Part shown: positions 3,866 to 23,417 of the stretch, piece by piece
Layout of the letters: each line of letters starts with the position of its first letter
Numbering within the stretch: position 1 is the stretch's first letter
Source of the DNA: Gemmatimonadota bacterium
Lineage (GTDB): Bacteria; Gemmatimonadota; Gemmatimonadetes; Palauibacterales; KS3-K002
DNA: 64,000 nucleotides
Direction of reading: 5' to 3'
Assembly: GCA_039586795.1 (NCBI GenBank)
Contig: JBDHJS010000027.1
Location: forward strand, 1-64,000
Position numbers and translations under genes: made by a program
Notes under the pieces: generated by a model
Databases searched by the model: none
What the model was told of the DNA's origin: nothing
What the model saw: the letters and a program-made list of their open reading frames with translations, nothing else

Positions 3866-5635
3866 ATGAAGAAAGGGATCTTCCGCTGGAGAGCCATCGG
3901 CGTATTGATCGGACTCGCGATCGTCGTCGGCATTGTGTGGTTCATCATCGCCGAGCCGGTGACGGAGCGTACCCTCGAGTCCATCGGCACGCGCATGATC
4001 GGCGCTCGGGTGGAGATCGAAAAAGTGGAGCTGGGGTTCGGGAGTGCGTCCCTACAAGGGGTGACTGTAGCCAGCCCGTTCGTGCCACTCGAAAATCTGC
4101 TGGAGGCGGAGGAGCTGGCGGCCGAGATCAACCTGATCCCGCTGCTCAAGAAGAAGGTGGTGATCGAGCGGTTGGCGGCGACAGGGATGAGGTTCGGAAC
4201 GAGTCGTGAGACCGACGGCCGCGTGGAGTTGGAGGGCGGACGCCGTGGCGTGATCGACCCCCGTGGCTGGTCCGAGTTGTTCGACTTCCCGGCCCTCGAC
4301 CTGGTGACCGGCGAAGTCTCGGTGACCGATCTGGATCCGAACGATCTGTACACCGTGCAGCAGGCGCAGGCGCTGACCGGTCGCGCCGACTCGACGTGGA
4401 CGGCATGGCAGGCGATGGCCACGCAGATCGAGGACTCGGTCACCGCCACCGTGGAAGCCGTGGAGAACATGCTGGAGCGTCTGCAGAACGCCCGGCTCAC
4501 CGACCTCGGTTTGATCAACGACGCGCGAAACACGATCGAGCAGGTCGAAAGCACGGTGGAGCGGCTGGAGAGCATCGAGGCCGAAGTCGACAACACGCTG
4601 AACGGTATGGAGAGGGAAGTGGCGGGGCTGAGCGATGCCACGCAACGCGATTACGATCGCGCCCGGGACTTCGTTCGCCTGCCCACCATCGATGCGGGCC
4701 GCATCGCCGCCGCGATCTTCGGCCCCGTTGCCGTCGAGCGCTTCCAGCGCGGCGTCTACTGGTCGGAGCTGGCGCGCCGCTACATGCCGCCGGGACTGAA
4801 ACCGCGAGCGCGGCCGGGTCCGAAGCGGGCCCGGGCCTCCGGCTCCACGGTGAATTTCCCGCGCCAGGGCGAGTACCCCGGCTTCTTGTTGGAGTTGGCG
4901 GAGCTGTCGTTCAGCCTTGCCGATGACGCACCGGCGAGTGCCGCCGACGATGAATACGCGGGCCGGCTGAGCGGCCTGACTTCAGCGCCGGCGATCTACG
5001 GAAGGCCAACGGAAGCCGCGGTGCGGGCGCCTAACGTGGTGGGCGGCGGCCTGTTCGATCACACCGGCGAGATGCCCCGAGACTCACTCGGTGCGACCAT
5101 CGCCGGCCTGCGTCTCGACACGCTGAGTCTCGGCGCGCTTCCCATCCGCCTCGCGACCGGCGCGCTGACCACCACCTTCTCCTTCGACCTGACCGACGAC
5201 CAGCTCACCGCCGGTTGGTCGATCAATGCCGACCGCGTCGACTGGCTCCGCGACTCCGCCGGCGCCACCAACGAGATAGAAGACCTGATCTGGCGCGCCG
5301 TCTCCGGCATCCAAAACGTTCAGGTCTCCGCCCAACTCTCCGGCACGCTATCCGATCCCAGCCTGGCGGTCTCGTCGAATCTGGACCGCGCCATCGCCGA
5401 CCGCATCCGTGCCGTGGCTGGCGAGGAGATTGCCGCCGCGGAAAGCCGACTGCGCGCGGAAGTCGATCGCCTCGTCGAGGGTCCCATCGCGAGTGCGGGC
5501 GACCGGGTCGTTCTTTTACGCGGTCAGGTGATGCCGCTCCTCGCCGCCCAGGACGAACGGCTCGCCGAGGCGCAGCGGCAGCTGGAGGAGCGCATCCGGG
5601 AACTGACGGGCGGCATAAGAATCCCGGGTTCTTGA
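3866..5635 (+). CDS. TIGR03545-family (AsmA-like) membrane-anchored protein
   Basis: ATG 3866 is 2 nt after the TIGR03546 stop. IFRWRAI N-terminus plus TM helix, coiled-coil middle, R..G..V.FP motif and LAVSSNLDRAI C-terminal motif. Confidence 0.85.
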   Translation: MKKGIFRWRAIGVLIGLAIVVGIVWFIIAEPVTERTLESIGTRMIGARVEIEKVELGFGSASLQGVTVASPFVPLENLLEAEELAAEINLIPLLKKKVVIERLAATGMRFGTSRETDGRVELEGGRRGVIDPRGWSELFDFPALDLVTGEVSVTDLDPNDLYTVQQAQALTGRADSTWTAWQAMATQIEDSVTATVEAVENMLERLQNARLTDLGLINDARNTIEQVESTVERLESIEAEVDNTLNGMEREVAGLSDATQRDYDRARDFVRLPTIDAGRIAAAIFGPVAVERFQRGVYWSELARRYMPPGLKPRARPGPKRARASGSTVNFPRQGEYPGFLLELAELSFSLADDAPASAADDEYAGRLSGLTSAPAIYGRPTEAAVRAPNVVGGGLFDHTGEMPRDSLGATIAGLRLDTLSLGALPIRLATGALTTTFSFDLTDDQLTAGWSINADRVDWLRDSAGATNEIEDLIWRAVSGIQNVQVSAQLSGTLSDPSLAVSSNLDRAIADRIRAVAGEEIAAAESRLRAEVDRLVEGPIASAGDRVVLLRGQVMPLLAAQDERLAEAQRQLEERIRELTGGIRIPGS

Positions 5636-5699
5636 GTCGCCACTCCGTCATCGCTGGATGGGCTATTCGATACTTAACAACAATCATTATCAATTCTTG

Positions 5700-5728
5700 T
5701 TGCCATTTCGGCTGAGTCGTTGCATAGT
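5700..5728 (+). promoter_or_regulatory. sigma70-like promoter TTGCCA-N17-CATAGT of leader cassette copy 1
   Basis: Identical hexamers and 17-nt spacer recur at 9351-9379. Confidence 0.65.
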
Positions 5729-5740
5729 GGCCACATACTG

Positions 5741-5799
5741 GTAGGTGGGCTGAGGACGTCGAACGTTCCCGCTGACTGGAGTCCTCAGTCGTGGCAGTA
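5741..5799 (+). promoter_or_regulatory. Conserved 5'-leader hairpin motif, copy 1
   Basis: AGGTGGGCTGAGGACG...GGAGTCCTCAGTCGTG; stem GGCTGAGGAC/GTCCTCAGTC; homologous to 9389-9444 (+) and 23322-23379 (-). Confidence 0.75.
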
Positions 5800-5919
5800 C
5801 GACATGCAGTACCTCGCCGCTCGATCTGGCCAGCACGCCTTGCGTGTTGGTGTAGACTAACGCCGATCGCAAGAGCTTCACGATTTTTCCGCAGAGAGCG
5901 TGCACCGCCTCCTTGCTAA
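5791..5919 (+). CDS. Putative RAPP-motif leader (arrest) peptide, 42 aa: MAVRHAVPRRSIWPARLACWCRLTPIARASRFFRRERAPPPC
   Basis: GGAG 9 nt before GTG; RAPPP at codons 37-41; gapless homology with the uORF at 23156..23329, mostly via synonymous codons. Below the ORF-track length cut-off. Confidence 0.65.
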   Translation: MAVRHAVPRRSIWPARLACWCRLTPIARASRFFRRERAPPPC

Positions 5920-5979
5920 CCCAACAGGGGGTGGGTGGTGCCCGTGTGTCCGATGCCCCCAGCGAACGGGAGGTACGTC

Positions 5980-6276
5980 ATGCCTCAGGTTGCTACAGAA
6001 GTACTCACCATAGACATCAGGGTCATCGACGGTAAGATCTACTGCCCGAATCGACGCGCGAGTAAGTACGACGAGGTCTTCTGGGTGTGTGACACCCATC
6101 ACTGGCGCGTCGAGTTCAACAAGGGCGGAAGCCCCTTCACGGCGCTTGGCTTCGGAAACAAGCCAGGGGCGAAGGAGGGAGATCTCGTGGAGTGGCCCGG
6201 AGTATACGACTACACGGTCTATGCCGAGGGTTGCGAGCCGCTCGATCCGGTACTGAGAGTAGATGAAGAGATCTGA
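5980..6276 (+). CDS. Small beta-rich hypothetical protein, 98 aa, possibly cupredoxin-like fold
   Basis: GGGAGG RBS at 5968-5973, coding-like codon usage, GVYDYTV...LDP C-terminal pattern, 3 Cys plus HH; no signal peptide. Confidence 0.75.
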   Translation: MPQVATEVLTIDIRVIDGKIYCPNRRASKYDEVFWVCDTHHWRVEFNKGGSPFTALGFGNKPGAKEGDLVEWPGVYDYTVYAEGCEPLDPVLRVDEEI

Positions 6277-6298
6277 GGCATCGTCACCAAAGGGAGGT

Positions 6299-6330
6299 CG
6301 GTAGGCGCGACGCCCGTGTCGCGCCTACCG
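6299..6330. terminator. Perfect 13-bp hairpin between convergent genes (bidirectional terminator or REP-like)
   Basis: cggtaggcgcgac-gcccgt-gtcgcgcctaccg. Confidence 0.7.
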
Positions 6331-9087
6331 CTACCCAACGAGCTCCTGGAAGCGGGGGTCGTTTCTCAAGGGTTCCCACCACCAGTCGACCTTGCCAACG
6401 TACTCCTTACTTCCCGGCACGGCCTCGAGGTGCCGTTCCAGCAACTGCAATGCCTCATCTGTCTCTCCGAGCAGTAGTCGGACGTAGGCCTCGTTGTAGT
6501 CGTGCATAGGATCGGGCTCCGCCACCGCGGCGCGTGCCAGGTCAATCACGGCTCGTGCGCTGTCACTCGAGCCGGCGCGGGCCAATACGGCGGCGACATA
6601 CATCAGGGTCGAGGGTCGGAGCCTTACGCTCGCCTGTGGCGGGCTATACTCCAGGAGTTCCTCGGCAAGCTCCCAAGCTGTCGTCACATCGGGTTCGGGT
6701 CCACCAGCCGAGGCAAGAGCCAGCAGCTGACTGTTGATGAGGGTGCGGTTCTGCGGATAGGCCTCACGCCCTTCGGTGCATCGTCGATCTGCCTCGTCCC
6801 ACTCGCGCAGCTCGATCAGGGTGTGGCACAGTCGAGCGTAGGCCTGGCCGCGCCGTTCGTAGAACTGGTCGACTTCGATAGCCCGCTCGGCGGCATACCG
6901 AGCTTCCTCCAGGTCACCGCCCAACCGTAGGACATTGGACAGGGTTTCCCACGCGTGGGCATCATTTGGATCGATCGTTGTGGCGGTCCGTAGATCCTGC
7001 TCGGCCATCTGCCGCTGGGCTACCGCTTCCTCCTCGTCCACCGCCTCCCGCAGCCAGTAACGCAGGTTCCCGCGAAGGGCGAGCGCTCGTGCGTTTTCAG
7101 GATCGAGTTCGAGGGCCCGGTCAGTCAAAGCGATCCCGCCATACAACATGCTTGGATCACGCCTGCGAACGCTTCTGCCCAGGATTCTGGCGCGCTCGTA
7201 CATGATCCAACCGCGTTCGACAATCGGGTCAGCCCATCCATCGTCGATCCGATTCGCGTCGGCGAACATCGAGTCGGCCCGATCGTACGTTGCCAGAGCC
7301 AGTTCGGGGGACCCCTCGGTGCGTAGGTCTTTCGCTTCGCTGACCCACTCGCGCCCATAGGCATAGAGCTCCCAGGCCGCGTTGCTTTCGGTGGCCGCCA
7401 TACGCTCCAGGTCGCGAAGTATGACCCCGAGCTCCACACGCAGAGCCCGAGAGACCTCGGCGCCCAAATCGTCAAGCAAGGCGAGTGTTTCGACGCGCGG
7501 CCTCTGGTGTCGCGCGCTGTGGACCACGACGCGTCGGTTGGCGTCGAACAGTCTGACCGTAATGCGGATGTCGTCCTGAAAAGCGATGATCGTTCCCTCG
7601 ATCAGGGTGCCTGCTTCCAGATCGCCGATCACGCTGTCGAGGACGACATCCGCCCCGCTGTATCGTTTGACCGCCGAATAGGGAAGCACCTCGAGTACGT
7701 CGATATGGCTGAGTTGATCGATCAATGCCTCGGGAATGGCGAGCGCCAGGTGACCCAAAACCTGCCCTTCGCTCTGGTCGTCGAACGGCAACACGGCGAT
7801 CCGCGTCGGGTGCAAAGCCGAGGCGGCTTCAGTCCCCACCGCGGCGCCGGAGGAGCCGACGATTCGTATTCCAACCAGCAGCGCGATGATCAGAGCGGCT
7901 AGCGCGGCCAGGAGATGTGCCGGCCTGGCTCGCACCGCCCACCGTCTCCAGCTGCGCCGCAACGCCGGCTCGCTGGGTGAAATCACGGGGTCGTCCTGCG
8001 TCCAGGATGCTGACAATACCAGCGGAAGGCCGAGGGCGAGGACAATCGGGAGCGCCGTTAGAGCCCACCGTCCGACTGTTCCGGAGTCGACAAGCCTGCC
8101 GGTCAACTCCAGCGCCAGCCAGGCGCACGCGACGTAGGCTAGACCGATATGCAGTACGAGGCGGTCCCTAAGCTCGCGCAGAATCCACTTCGCCCTCTGA
8201 ATCGGATGTTCGGGGAGCAACTGAGGGCGCAGTGCCCCACCGTTGCTATTGGCCGGCAAGAGGCTGGCGCAGAATTCATCGGTTGTCGAGAAACGATCCT
8301 TCGGAGCTTTGGCGAGTGCCTTTCTCAAGGTGGCCGATACCGTCTTCGGCACAGAGGGACGTACGCTGTGAATCGGGCGCGGTCGCTCTATCATGTGGCG
8401 CGCGATGATGCCCTGCGGTGTTTGCCCCGTAAACGGTGGCTCGCCTGCCAGCATCTCGTAAAGCACACAGGCCAGTGAATAGATGTCGGTCCGCGTATCA
8501 AGCTCGGTCTCCCCGCTGGCCTGCTCTGGACTCATGTAGGTCGGCGTGCCGACGAAGACCCCGCTCTGAGTCATACGCTCGCCGCCGGCTTCGTCGATCG
8601 CGCTCGCGATGCCGAAGTCCGCGAGAACCGCATGACGTTCCGATAGCAGAATGTTCTCCGGCTTCACGTCCCGGTGTACGACGCCGTGGCTGTGCGCGTA
8701 ACTCAACGCGTCGGCAACCTCGTTCGTGATGCGGATCGCGTCATACAGCGTCAACCGCTTCTCTCTATCGAGGCGATCCCGTAATGACTCGCCCTCCACA
8801 AAGGGCATGACGTAGTAGAGAAACCCGCTCGCCTCACCCGAGTCGTGTAGCGGCAGAATGTTGGTGTGTTGGAGACGCGCCTCGATCCCGATCTCGCGCA
8901 GAAAGCGCTCGCCCCCCAGCATCGAGGCCAGTTCCGGATGCAGGACCTTGATCGCTACGAATCGCTTGTGCTTGAGATCTTCGGCCAGGTAGACAGTCGC
9001 CATCCCGCCGCGACCGACTTCTCTCTCGAACCGGTAACGATCGGACAGGGCCGACTGTAGGCAGGCAAGCACATCCAATCCGGTCAC
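6331..9087 (-). CDS. Ser/Thr protein kinase with TM segments, TolB-like domain and TPR repeats
   Basis: GRGGMA, VAIK, HRDVKPEN, DFG and GTPTYMSPEQ motifs; ELRDRLV...YVACAW TM module; IAVLPF TolB_N-like motif; TPRs; ends LRNDPRFQEL. Confidence 0.93.
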   Translation of the reverse strand: MTGLDVLACLQSALSDRYRFEREVGRGGMATVYLAEDLKHKRFVAIKVLHPELASMLGGERFLREIGIEARLQHTNILPLHDSGEASGFLYYVMPFVEGESLRDRLDREKRLTLYDAIRITNEVADALSYAHSHGVVHRDVKPENILLSERHAVLADFGIASAIDEAGGERMTQSGVFVGTPTYMSPEQASGETELDTRTDIYSLACVLYEMLAGEPPFTGQTPQGIIARHMIERPRPIHSVRPSVPKTVSATLRKALAKAPKDRFSTTDEFCASLLPANSNGGALRPQLLPEHPIQRAKWILRELRDRLVLHIGLAYVACAWLALELTGRLVDSGTVGRWALTALPIVLALGLPLVLSASWTQDDPVISPSEPALRRSWRRWAVRARPAHLLAALAALIIALLVGIRIVGSSGAAVGTEAASALHPTRIAVLPFDDQSEGQVLGHLALAIPEALIDQLSHIDVLEVLPYSAVKRYSGADVVLDSVIGDLEAGTLIEGTIIAFQDDIRITVRLFDANRRVVVHSARHQRPRVETLALLDDLGAEVSRALRVELGVILRDLERMAATESNAAWELYAYGREWVSEAKDLRTEGSPELALATYDRADSMFADANRIDDGWADPIVERGWIMYERARILGRSVRRRDPSMLYGGIALTDRALELDPENARALALRGNLRYWLREAVDEEEAVAQRQMAEQDLRTATTIDPNDAHAWETLSNVLRLGGDLEEARYAAERAIEVDQFYERRGQAYARLCHTLIELREWDEADRRCTEGREAYPQNRTLINSQLLALASAGGPEPDVTTAWELAEELLEYSPPQASVRLRPSTLMYVAAVLARAGSSDSARAVIDLARAAVAEPDPMHDYNEAYVRLLLGETDEALQLLERHLEAVPGSKEYVGKVDWWWEPLRNDPRFQELVG

Positions 9088-9350: not shown

Positions 9351-9444
9351 TTGCCAATCGCATTCGAGCGTTACATAGTTGCGGCATAGGGAGGTGGGCT
9401 GAGGACGAACTCTCCTCCAACAGGAGTCCTCAGTCGTGTTAGTA
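9351..9444 (+). promoter_or_regulatory. Leader cassette copy 2: promoter TTGCCA-N17-CATAGT plus conserved hairpin
   Basis: AGGTGGGCTGAGGACG (9392-9407) and GGAGTCCTCAGTCGTG (9423-9438) are identical to copy 1. Confidence 0.75.
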
Positions 9445-9711
9445 AAAGACGGAGAAGCTCACCAACAGCGCGGGCCTGGACCGGTACGTCATGCCGCTCG
9501 GCCTGTTCCATCCCACGCGGTCACGAGTTCACTGAAAAAGGTCGTGGCCGCCGTCGAGACCCGTGGCAGGAGTTCAGACAAAAAACTCGGCCGCGGGTAT
9601 TCTTGTTTTCAACTTGATTGCCGCGCGACAGAGTATGGGGGCAGAGGGCTCAGGTTCTCGAGGCCGGAGGCTTACGGCACCTGACCGTACGGTGCACCGG
9701 AGGTGGTACGG

Positions 9712-10500
9712 ATGGCCCCGGAAAAGCCAGGGACTTCAGTATACTTCGGCAAGCTGATCGCCAGCCGCCCGGATCGGGCCGGTAAGGCGGTGGGCGCCGC
9801 CGCGCTGGGTTCGCTGGCTCTTCACACGCTGCTCATCGGTGCCGCGGTGTGGGTGACGCTGGCACTTGGCAAGGAAGTTGGGGCCGGAGCCGCGGAACAG
9901 ATCACCGTGTTCGAGATCATGGAGCTGGAGCCGACCCCGCTGCCGCCGCGGCCGGAGCCGCCGTTGGCCCAGGAGCCGCTTCGCGAGGATGTCGCGCCGG
10001 CCGAGCCGCCGAGCGAGTTACCCAGGGGTTTCCAGACGCTCGCCGAACCCGAGCTCATCCCTTACGAGATTCCTCCCCCCACTCCAATCGTCATCGAAGC
10101 GGCCGATTTCAGCGGCGAGGGCGTTGAGGGTGGAGTGGCCGAAGGGACGGGCACGGATACAGTAGTCTCGAGGCCGGCCGCATTGGAGGATGGACCAACG
10201 ATCACGCCCTACGACGTTCCTCCACGGCTGAAAAACCCGGACGAAGTGGGAGAAGCGCTCCTGCGACTGTATCCCAGAGTGTTGCGGCAGGCCGGGGTGA
10301 CCGGCACGGTCGAGTTGTGGATCCTGATCGACGACACCGGCCGCACTGTGAAGAGCGAGGTCCGGATCTCCAGTGGGCGGGATGCTTTTGATGAGGCGGC
10401 GCTTGCGTTAGCTGAGATCATGGAGTTCACGCCGGCGGAGAACCAAGGTGAACAGGTGGCCGCCTGGATAATCATCCCGGTGGAATTCGTGATGAGATAG
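9712..10500 (+). CDS. tonB: Energy transducer TonB
   Basis: SLALH TM motif, Pro-rich spacer, YP...GVTGTV...FTPA TonB C-terminal domain; GGAGG RBS before ATG 9712. Confidence 0.9.
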   Translation: MAPEKPGTSVYFGKLIASRPDRAGKAVGAAALGSLALHTLLIGAAVWVTLALGKEVGAGAAEQITVFEIMELEPTPLPPRPEPPLAQEPLREDVAPAEPPSELPRGFQTLAEPELIPYEIPPPTPIVIEAADFSGEGVEGGVAEGTGTDTVVSRPAALEDGPTITPYDVPPRLKNPDEVGEALLRLYPRVLRQAGVTGTVELWILIDDTGRTVKSEVRISSGRDAFDEAALALAEIMEFTPAENQGEQVAAWIIIPVEFVMR

Positions 10501-22611: not shown

Positions 22612-23151
22612 CTAGAAAATGATCCCGGATGCGGCAAACAGCTCAGAGAATGGCGTTGTTTCAATTGCATTGAACCTGATCTGTTTCGTGTGGAAGTCGC
22701 CAGTTCCGTGACCGATTCCTCTCATCGTTACCTGGTAGCCGGTTGACAGCCCTTTGAAGGGTCCTTGGAACATTCCACAAATGCCGTCATAGCATACGTC
22801 CATAGTGACGAAGCCGCGGACGCGGCCGTCACCCGCGGCGTCCTGTGACCCGTTCAGGATGGCCGTAATCGTTCCAACCAGATCGCCATCGACGGTCCCC
22901 GGAACGATACATTTCTTGAAGTGGTTCGTCCCCGTTGCGGGGTCGGGGGTAACACACTCGGGGTTGATGACATTGGGAAACCCGGGTATTGGGCCGCTGA
23001 CGTCGGCTTCGAAAGTGATGGGCGTTGCTTTCTTGACCGCCGTTGCCGAGGGTGTGATTCCGTCAGCTGACAACTCGGTCGGTGTTGGATTGTCACAGCC
23101 CGCAATGAGAAAGGCCAAGGTAAGCATGAAGAAAAGGGCTCGATGCTTCAT
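22612..23151 (-). CDS. Hypothetical lipoprotein, beta-rich
   Basis: Lipobox LIAG-C; GGGAG RBS; four further Cys. Confidence 0.8.
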   Translation of the reverse strand: MKHRALFFMLTLAFLIAGCDNPTPTELSADGITPSATAVKKATPITFEADVSGPIPGFPNVINPECVTPDPATGTNHFKKCIVPGTVDGDLVGTITAILNGSQDAAGDGRVRGFVTMDVCYDGICGMFQGPFKGLSTGYQVTMRGIGHGTGDFHTKQIRFNAIETTPFSELFAASGIIF

Positions 23152-23155
23152 GACG

Positions 23156-23329
23156 TCACTCCCGGTAGACGTTCTGGATCACGCGTGGAAGATGGATGTA
23201 CTGTTGGGGAGGAGGGGCGCGTCGGGGTTTCAGGAACAGTCTCGTTCTGGAGCAAAACACATAGATAGCACTTGCGGACGCAATCGCAGGCTTGCCTGAA
23301 GGGCAGGGTAATACTCCCGGCACTTCCAC
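23156..23329 (-). CDS. Putative RAPP-motif leader (arrest) peptide, 57 aa: MEVPGVLPCPSGKPAIASASAIYVFCSRTRLFLKPRRAPPPQQYIHLPRVIQNVYRE
   Basis: GTG at the same motif position as copy 1; RAPPP at codons 37-41; stop 4 nt before the lipoprotein ATG. Confidence 0.65.
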   Translation of the reverse strand: MEVPGVLPCPSGKPAIASASAIYVFCSRTRLFLKPRRAPPPQQYIHLPRVIQNVYRE

Positions 23330-23417
23330 GGCTGAGGTCCCCGGTCGGAGTATCCGTTCTCGGCCTCAACCCATCTCCCGAAAATACTAACCTGCGATAG
23401 TATTTGTAATTGTGCAA
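23322..23417 (-). promoter_or_regulatory. Leader cassette copy 3: promoter TTGCAC-N17-CAGGTT plus conserved hairpin
   Basis: Minus strand reads GGGAGATGGGTTGAGGCCG...GGGGACCTCAGCCGTGGAAGT; stem GGTTGAGG/CCTCAGCC kept by pairing-compatible changes. Confidence 0.7.

Follow-up and report, generated by a model that had tools for sequence, protein, structure and literature searches.

The window, which is the whole stretch of DNA analyzed herein, comprises 64,000 nucleotides of a Gemmatimonadota bacterium (GTDB lineage Bacteria; Gemmatimonadota; Gemmatimonadetes; Palauibacterales; KS3-K002), namely, positions 1-64,000 of the forward strand of contig JBDHJS010000027.1 in assembly GCA_039586795.1. 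It contains three copies of a leader in which a predicted promoter is followed by a hairpin and a uORF. Their features are as follows:

5673..5694, plus strand: copy 1, palindromic operator-like box, Fur-box-like, just 5' of the -35 element (15.4 bits at the canonical offset)
5700..5728, plus strand: copy 1, predicted sigma70-type promoter TTGCCA-N17-CATAGT (-35 at 5700-5705, -10 at 5723-5728)
5748..5790, plus strand: copy 1, 5' hairpin (helix P2, 5748-5757 with 5781-5790)
5791..5919, plus strand: copy 1, uORF of 42 codons with a GTG start, ending in RAPPPC
5899..5910, plus strand: copy 1, codons for Arg37-Ala-Pro-Pro (a ribosome is predicted to stall here with Pro39 in its P site and Pro40 in its A site)
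5980..6276, plus strand: copy 1, downstream 98-aa gene without a Pfam or NCBIfam family and without a hydrophobic N-terminus
9351-9684, plus strand: copy 3, promoter and hairpin like those of copies 1 and 2, GTG at 9436, 82-codon frame without RAPP
22612..23151, minus strand: copy 2, downstream gene for a predicted lipoprotein of 179 aa
23156..23329, minus strand: copy 2, uORF of 57 codons with GTG at 23329 and RAPP at 23221-23210
23330..23372, minus strand: copy 2, hairpin
23389..23417, minus strand: copy 2, promoter TTGCAC-N17-CAGGTT at the position typical of the leader family

The observation made in the initial annotation of this window was confirmed, and the leader family is larger than that annotation had it. 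In copy 1, the promoter, the hairpin, and GGAG (5778-5781) 9 nt before the GTG at 5791 were all present as described, as were the 42-codon uORF ending in RAPPPC and the 98-aa gene starting at 5980. Transcription is predicted to start near 5735, and helix P2 pairs the spacer between GGAG and the uORF start. The register of the predicted stall was set by analogy with PMC10951233. The second copy does begin at 23417 on the minus strand; however, its uORF does not end directly after RAPPP and continues for 17 codons beyond RAPP to a TGA 4 nt before the next ATG. The promoter scan of copy 2 ranked TTGATA-N17-AATACT, located slightly upstream, above TTGCAC-N17-CAGGTT. When aligned over 41 codons without gaps, the uORFs of copies 1 and 2 encode the identical residue at 13 positions, 10 of which are written with different codons, and both the number and the positions agree with the annotation; 52 of the 123 nt are identical. 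None of 9,262 random open frames of the genome reached 13 identities with copy 1 (mean 3.3). CCTCCT (5908-5913) and the complementary GGGAGG (5968-5973) were located where they had been placed, and the proteins encoded downstream of the two copies are, as annotated, unrelated (best E 0.11). The initial annotation had not picked up how much larger the family is, that RAPP is often lost, the C>G skew, or the palindrome upstream. Copy 3 heads tonB-exbB-exbD-exbD, with the tonB ATG at 9712, and its upstream palindrome is degenerate (1.6 bits).

A sequence-only model of the hairpin and uORF detected seven copies in this genome, three of which are in the window. Across the family, it gave 200 matches in 29 of the 31 genomes and 11 of the 12 genera of the family, with up to 22 matches per genome. 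The promoter and helix counts out of 150 given below rest on the 150 of these 200 matches that were listed. Copies assembled from the loci numbered 159 covering the start, 155 of which were non-redundant and 148 evaluable. A pattern scan of metagenomes yielded 23 loci, including one evident chance match (L146), and that of named genome contigs yielded at least 118 loci; the high-scoring matches listed in the latter were all titled Gemmatimonadota, and the low-scoring remainder was treated as chance. Outside this one Gemmatimonadota family, no genuine copy was found in the searches made. The protein profile gave no match below E 0.001 in 399 genomes of other families, with the best 18 candidates per genome scored and with one genome flagged as unpublished (G102), on which alone no conclusion depends, included in the tally. 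Weak matches of the RNA model outside the family, in nine genomes, were all inspected and were all coding sequences. Viral contigs had no leader matches, the predicted-protein database had none at E 0.01, and the ESM Atlas gave no usable match. Copies of the cassette of box, promoter, hairpin, and uORF are spread across one family, and no carrier element was identified for them. A genome of the same genus that is 86% complete (G001) had no model match, and another (G002) had five. At L286 (G015:C1:1789788-1790276), two leaders stand back to back and drive divergent genes.

An in-frame R-x-P-P was kept in 45 of the 148 evaluable copies. These intact copies, for which R-x-P-P was the required filter, carry 37 RAPP, 5 RSPP, and one each of RDPP, RVPP, and RGPP; their start codons are GTG in 36, ATG in 3, TTG in 3, and another codon in 3. 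The distance from the start codon to Arg is fixed, with Arg at codon 37 in 32 of the 45 copies and within codons 36-38 in 36. At codons 29-36, the pooled pairwise dN/dS of the 32 copies with Arg at codon 37 was 0.34, whereas the other two frames gave 1.45 and 1.12. Constraint was weak at codons 2-28 (0.64-0.69 versus 0.73-0.89 in the other frames), and the value of 0.04 at the motif itself is circular. To escape this circularity, codon 37 was placed by aligning codons 1-36 alone, and R-x-P-P was then present in 30 of the 40 copies in frame, 2 of the 15 with a frameshift, and 3 of the 5 with a preceding stop codon; the consensus for this placement was derived from intact copies, and the copies are related rather than independent. 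The other 88 of the 148 copies had no alignable 3' homology. Among the 40 in-frame copies, differences at codon positions 1, 2, and 3 were 0.18, 0.17, and 0.53, respectively. The contrast between in-frame and frameshifted copies, the dN/dS values, and the start-codon swaps bear out the earlier proposal and show, from sequence comparisons, that selection acts on the uORF peptide rather than on the DNA.

On a tree built without the motif, the motif required 26 changes, 12 of which were forced by well-supported branches, and R-x-P-P is best read as an ancestral motif that was lost many times. The in-frame motif is absent from 103 of the 148 copies (about two thirds), in which the hairpin and the skew are still kept; therefore, the putative stall appears to be dispensable at many loci. 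Among the 32 copies with Arg at codon 37, the conserved residues are W13 (25/32), F/Y32 (22/32), and R35 (27/32), and W13 falls inside a predicted RNA helix. Nothing is conserved downstream of RAPP: the stop codon follows after 0-417 codons (25 or fewer in 29 of the 45 intact copies), and pairwise identity over the next 20 nt is 28%. In agreement with the annotation, an inspection of the 35-row alignment revealed no hydrophobic segment, and the family has no conserved Cys and no CxxC. Neither uORF of copies 1 and 2 had a Pfam match.

The single-sequence folding z-scores of the window hairpins were modest (-1.0 to -1.8); support for the helix comes from the leader family. The family helix starts approximately 10 nt after the predicted transcription start, its 3' strand comprises the 8 nt before the start codon, and a purine-rich SD is located at about -14 to -9. 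The helix beat shuffled partners in 138 of 150 copies among the matches listed, with or without RAPP. In a hand tally of the pair table for 134 sequences, pair-keeping transitions outnumbered pair-breaking transitions by 98 to 27. These comparisons show a pattern of selection on the helix. Two-sided compensation was rare: none of 8 pairs had two-sided changes in 26 pattern-selected sequences, and a mutual-information analysis gave no clean covarying helix. The window had no Rfam match at the gathering score, and positions 5650-6000 had none up to E 10. An alternative fold of the 5' strand with codons 3-12, seen in single folds, was discarded as no better than shuffled partners (68/150 among the matches listed). 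CsrA binding at an AGGAUGU-like sequence was rejected because csrA was present in none of the 31 family genomes. Within uORF codons 12-19, a second small predicted helix, CUGG with CCAG, beat shuffles modestly (100/150 among the matches listed) and could be the reason why Trp13 is conserved. In L160, L164, L215, L216, L228, L229, L255, L257, and L274, the hairpin is of a second subtype: its 5' side is extended by a GCGATTAG-like sequence, and it has another strand that could pair with the spacer preceding the start codon. In L316, L339, and L273, the hairpin-gated start opens a long gene directly (DUF4062/NTPase, RCC1/Ig, or TPR proteins), and the uORF is reduced to a few fused codons.

The genes downstream of the leaders are unrelated, as the initial annotation had suggested from two copies: 134 proteins fell into 75 clusters. 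Its statement that the targets are unrelated to Sec/YidC also held, with none among the 68 proteins scanned of about 139 called and none in the window. Many of the 68 scanned proteins had no Pfam domain, and the others carried Ig-like, beta-propeller, beta-helix, TonB-plug, ankyrin, or kinase domains. By a heuristic of hydrophobicity and lipobox, an exported protein is encoded next downstream of 41 of the 45 intact copies (31 lipoprotein-like); an exported or hydrophobic-start product is encoded next downstream of 66 of the 94 copies without RAPP and by 507 of the 1,092 long ORFs of the genome. The 98-aa target of copy 1, which has no signal, is an exception within the family. This protein is weakly similar (E 6e-4) to that of a 101-aa gene behind another intact leader (L280:766-1068), and similar small genes also lie behind the RAPP-less copies L232 and L287. 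The lipoprotein of copy 2 has a homolog with 44% identity in another genus, also behind an intact leader. In intact copies, 44-168 nt (median 62) separate RAPP from the next start, and no copy has fewer than 44. RAPP-less copies often keep a long frame: of 86, 73 reach 30 codons, 14 overlap the gene by ATGA and 2 by TRATG, and 14 run into it in frame; 8 further RAPP-less copies were called as direct fusions of the uORF and gene. ATGA overlaps are not clearly commoner in RAPP-less copies than in intact copies (14/86 versus 3/45).

We consider it likely that a ribosome stalls at the RAPP motif of the uORF. A chain of approximately 39 residues barely spans the exit tunnel of the ribosome. Since the leader peptide would be held at this length and has no signal, CxxC, or conserved end, the arrest is probably long-lived and not released by pulling. 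The leader variants RSPP, RDPP, RVPP, and RGPP correspond to arrest-permissive substitutions published for ApdA and ApdP, in which Ser, Asp, Val, and Gly at the second position keep full or partial arrest (PMC12992588). Furthermore, a comparison with published arrest peptides revealed that RRERAPP recurs in 13 actinobacterial RAPP uORFs (PMC12992588). However, most of the RAPP-containing sequences of Escherichia coli and Bacillus subtilis tested in PMC10987492 did not stall, which counts against this reading.

Regarding the output, we tentatively favor, at slightly less than an even chance, a model in which the RAPP stall blocks Rho in the C-rich leader and thereby allows the expression of the downstream gene, which usually encodes a predicted lipoprotein. 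A ribosome translating the uORF would park at Arg37-Ala-Pro-Pro and shield the C>G-rich leader from Rho, and transcription would continue into the gene. The hairpin and the GUG start codon may make initiation infrequent, in which case single rather than collided ribosomes would occupy the stall. Such a throttled start would limit ribosome collisions, and we infer a link between this limitation and a Smr domain that the genome encodes in an 804-codon frame, MutS2-like by size. All 45 intact copies (mean 0.143) and 93 of the 94 copies without RAPP (mean 0.137) show a C>G skew at codons 4-29, compared with a background of -0.011, and these codons are less folded than the background. The skew is weak in copy 1 (maximum 0.09) and reaches 0.27 in copy 2. 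The C>G stretch sits upstream of the stall, not under the stalled ribosome, and the skew may be mere inheritance from a common ancestor. A full rho gene, over the curated cut-off, is located on contig C53 of the genome; a second rho-like gene (G000 C91:103086-104189) is under the curated cut-off (459 bits). No intrinsic terminator was detected in 5600-6400, and T-runs were present in 4 of the 45 linkers. RAPP-less uORFs often extend into the gene, whether through an overlap, in frame, or as a fusion, which suggests that occupancy of the leader by ribosomes is an ON signal. Three RNA runs and one untyped run yielded single low-depth contigs that match parts of the region with at least 99% identity; because one starts upstream of the promoter, they do not count as evidence of transcription. 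We also regard as possible, with greater doubt than the Rho model itself, a sensor-less module in which the hairpin-throttled 40-codon uORF only holds one ribosome as an anti-Rho/anti-decay roadblock, is copied with its promoter before dozens of unrelated exported-protein genes, and may be swapped for translational coupling or fusion upon the loss of RAPP.

Stalled ribosomes and 5' hairpins can stabilize mRNA. The parked ribosome and 5'-terminal hairpin may, thus, hinder 5'-dependent decay or RNase E scanning, in which case the cassette would be an mRNA stabilizer and a constitutive expression booster. The position of the hairpin approximately 10 nt after the predicted transcription start, its retention with or without RAPP, an RNase E/G gene in the genome, and the functionally unrelated targets (134 proteins in 75 clusters) fit this explanation. 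However, no RNase J, the nuclease behind the best-known case of roadblock stabilization, was over the cut-off in the genome, and the C>G skew is left unexplained; we regard stabilization as rather unlikely. Another explanation is a conditional arrest like that of TnaC or ErmCL, in which a small molecule, an antibiotic, or the state of a translation factor acts on the chain in the tunnel, and the genes behind the cassette form a regulon for exported proteins. The fixed distance from the start to Arg and the conserved W13, F/Y32, and R35 agree with such an arrest; R35-x-R37 also resembles the +X+ macrolide arrest motif, and hydrophobic-start targets are commoner behind intact copies (41/45) than behind RAPP-less copies (66/94). 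In contrast, codons 2-28 are weakly constrained, W13 lies in a predicted RNA helix, no pathway is common to the downstream genes, and RAPP arrests are robust and refractory to EF-P according to PMC12992588; this explanation is unlikely.

In the initial annotation, the Pro codons were regarded as an anti-Shine-Dalgarno sequence, and stalling was expected to free the downstream RBS in a SecM-type manner. This complementarity exists in copy 1; GCT encodes Ala38 in 23 of 37 copies, and CCT encodes Pro40 in 20 of 45. When a stalled ribosome was modeled on the leader, RBS accessibility increased by more than 1 kcal/mol in 14 of 45 copies and by more than 2 in 8, and a few copies gained 3-4.6 kcal/mol, including that on C62 of the genome (about 4). 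However, footprint folding revealed no effect at the level of the family: the median gain was 0.0 kcal/mol in 45 copies and 0.13 in 39 copies with a narrower window, it did not differ from that of shuffled (p 0.58, 0.68) or recoded (p 0.22) controls, and 10 of the 39 copies worsened by more than 1 kcal/mol. Only 3 of the 45 copies use CCT for the first Pro. The gain of copy 2 was 3.1 versus 3.0 when shuffled, or 0.7, and that of copy 1 was just 0.0-0.2 kcal/mol because a G-rich stretch closer by (about 5929-5948) is the predicted pairing partner of its Pro codons. The unmasking of the RBS, thus, did not hold and is improbable. The cassette may also be a decaying duplicated promoter-leader in which RAPP was important at an ancestral locus but does little in most of the copies that exist today. 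The loss of the in-frame motif (103/148) and of alignable 3' homology (88/148), the 26 changes on the tree, and the same-genus genome (86% complete) without a match agree with decay. Nevertheless, retained copies kept the motif with third positions saturated (0.53 versus 0.17-0.18), neutral retention at such divergence would be about 1%, and transitions in the helix favored pair-keeping over pair-breaking (98 to 27), and, thus, we regard decay as very improbable.

Under the favored Rho-blocking model, the leader appears to be a RAPP arrest uORF in kind and nearest to CruR in its proposed output. CruR is a Bordetella DUF2946 uORF that encodes a predicted exported protein of 145 residues with a copper-sensing CxxC; its RAPP-stalled ribosome is proposed to prevent Rho termination at a C>G bubble (PMC9426467). 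The leader and CruR both have RAPP in a uORF, a C>G bubble within it, rho in the genome, de novo initiation of the next gene, and downstream genes unrelated to Sec/YidC. Unlike CruR, the leader peptide has approximately 40 residues and no CxxC, signal, or DUF2946/Pfam match, its uORF is preceded by a conserved hairpin, and a single genome has as many as 22 matches. With ApdA, ApdP, RQH, and the Streptomyces lividans peptides, it shares the RAPP core, with invariant Arg and Pro-Pro and with A, S, D, G, or V at the second position, and the RRERAPP context is also common to Streptomyces secD uORFs (PMC12992588). ApdA, ApdP, RQH, and the seven S. lividans RAPP/RGPP peptides mostly have localization signals and a motif near the stop codon and, where tested, their stall can open a hairpin that covers the downstream SD (PMC10987492, PMC10951233, PMC12992588). 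In contrast to ApdA, ApdP, and RQH, the leader has no signal, fixed stop, sec/yidC target, or family-wide SD hairpin. One of the seven S. lividans peptides has no predicted localization signal (PMC12992588). Cytosolic RAPP peptides, thus, have a precedent; the leader is new in its minimal size, in having a start codon gated by a hairpin, and in being reused as a cassette in many copies. TnaC, which serves a single operon, is arrested at termination in the presence of free tryptophan, and the position of its ribosome has been proposed to control Rho. The leader similarly has a short peptide held inside the tunnel and a ribosome position proposed to control Rho; however, its motif is of the elongation-arrest type and it is reused before many genes. 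Putative mobile promoters are defined by an identity of at least 80% across 50 nt in front of genes that are not paralogs (PMC3575422). Homologous promoter/leader DNA also precedes non-paralogous genes of one genome in the present family; however, the leader copies are old and diverged and carry a peptide-coding module. A description of the leader was not found in the literature searched, in which the RAPP uORF list of PMC12992588 was covered in part and may hold an entry; the name "Gemmatimonadota" does not occur in the main text of either PMC12992588 or PMC10987492.

RAPP arrest peptides are usually regarded as single-target sensors that are released by pulling or a ligand. The use and release of arrest outside protein localization were described as an open question in PMC12992588. 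The leader family is a minimal cytosolic case for which nature provides about 45 intact variants and about 100 losses; it allows us to ask which residues upstream of RAPP are needed for stalling and what effect a stall has without a sensor domain. Moreover, the promoter and peptide-coding leader are reused as one unit. If the module merely boosts expression, it may become a portable expression element.

Control inputs of the Rho-blocking model may lie at initiation on the hairpin and at the promoter box. Family conservation begins approximately 27 nt upstream of the -35 element with the palindrome GATA-N5-TATC. The promoter TTGC-N19-CATAnT was present in 125 of 150 copies among the matches listed, compared with a mean of 4 in shuffles, and its spacer is 17 in 112 copies among the matches listed; the tRNA promoters of the genome mostly read TTGA, not TTGC. 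At a fixed offset, 13 of the 19 commonest bases of the palindrome match the E. coli Fur box, and 25 of 124 copies reach 12 or more of the 19 bases versus 1% of shuffles. The palindrome has centers at -18, -15, and -12, similar to the overlapping 7-1-7 repeats of the 19-bp Fur box (PMC11353095). The genome has two Fur-family genes. However, the identity of the box as a Fur site was not confirmed because no such box precedes the feoB operon of the genome. The feoB gene (G000 C22:32594-34212) is preceded by a 349-codon frame that, by eye, encodes a DtxR-type regulator fused to FeoA-like domains. The palindrome and TTGC-type promoter also occur at sites without a leader-model match (G000 C7:13227, C6:30235, C43:1196, and C17:17513), which suggests a wider regulon of one regulator beyond the leader copies. 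One of these leader-less sites precedes a gene that we take, from its sequence, to be sufB-like.
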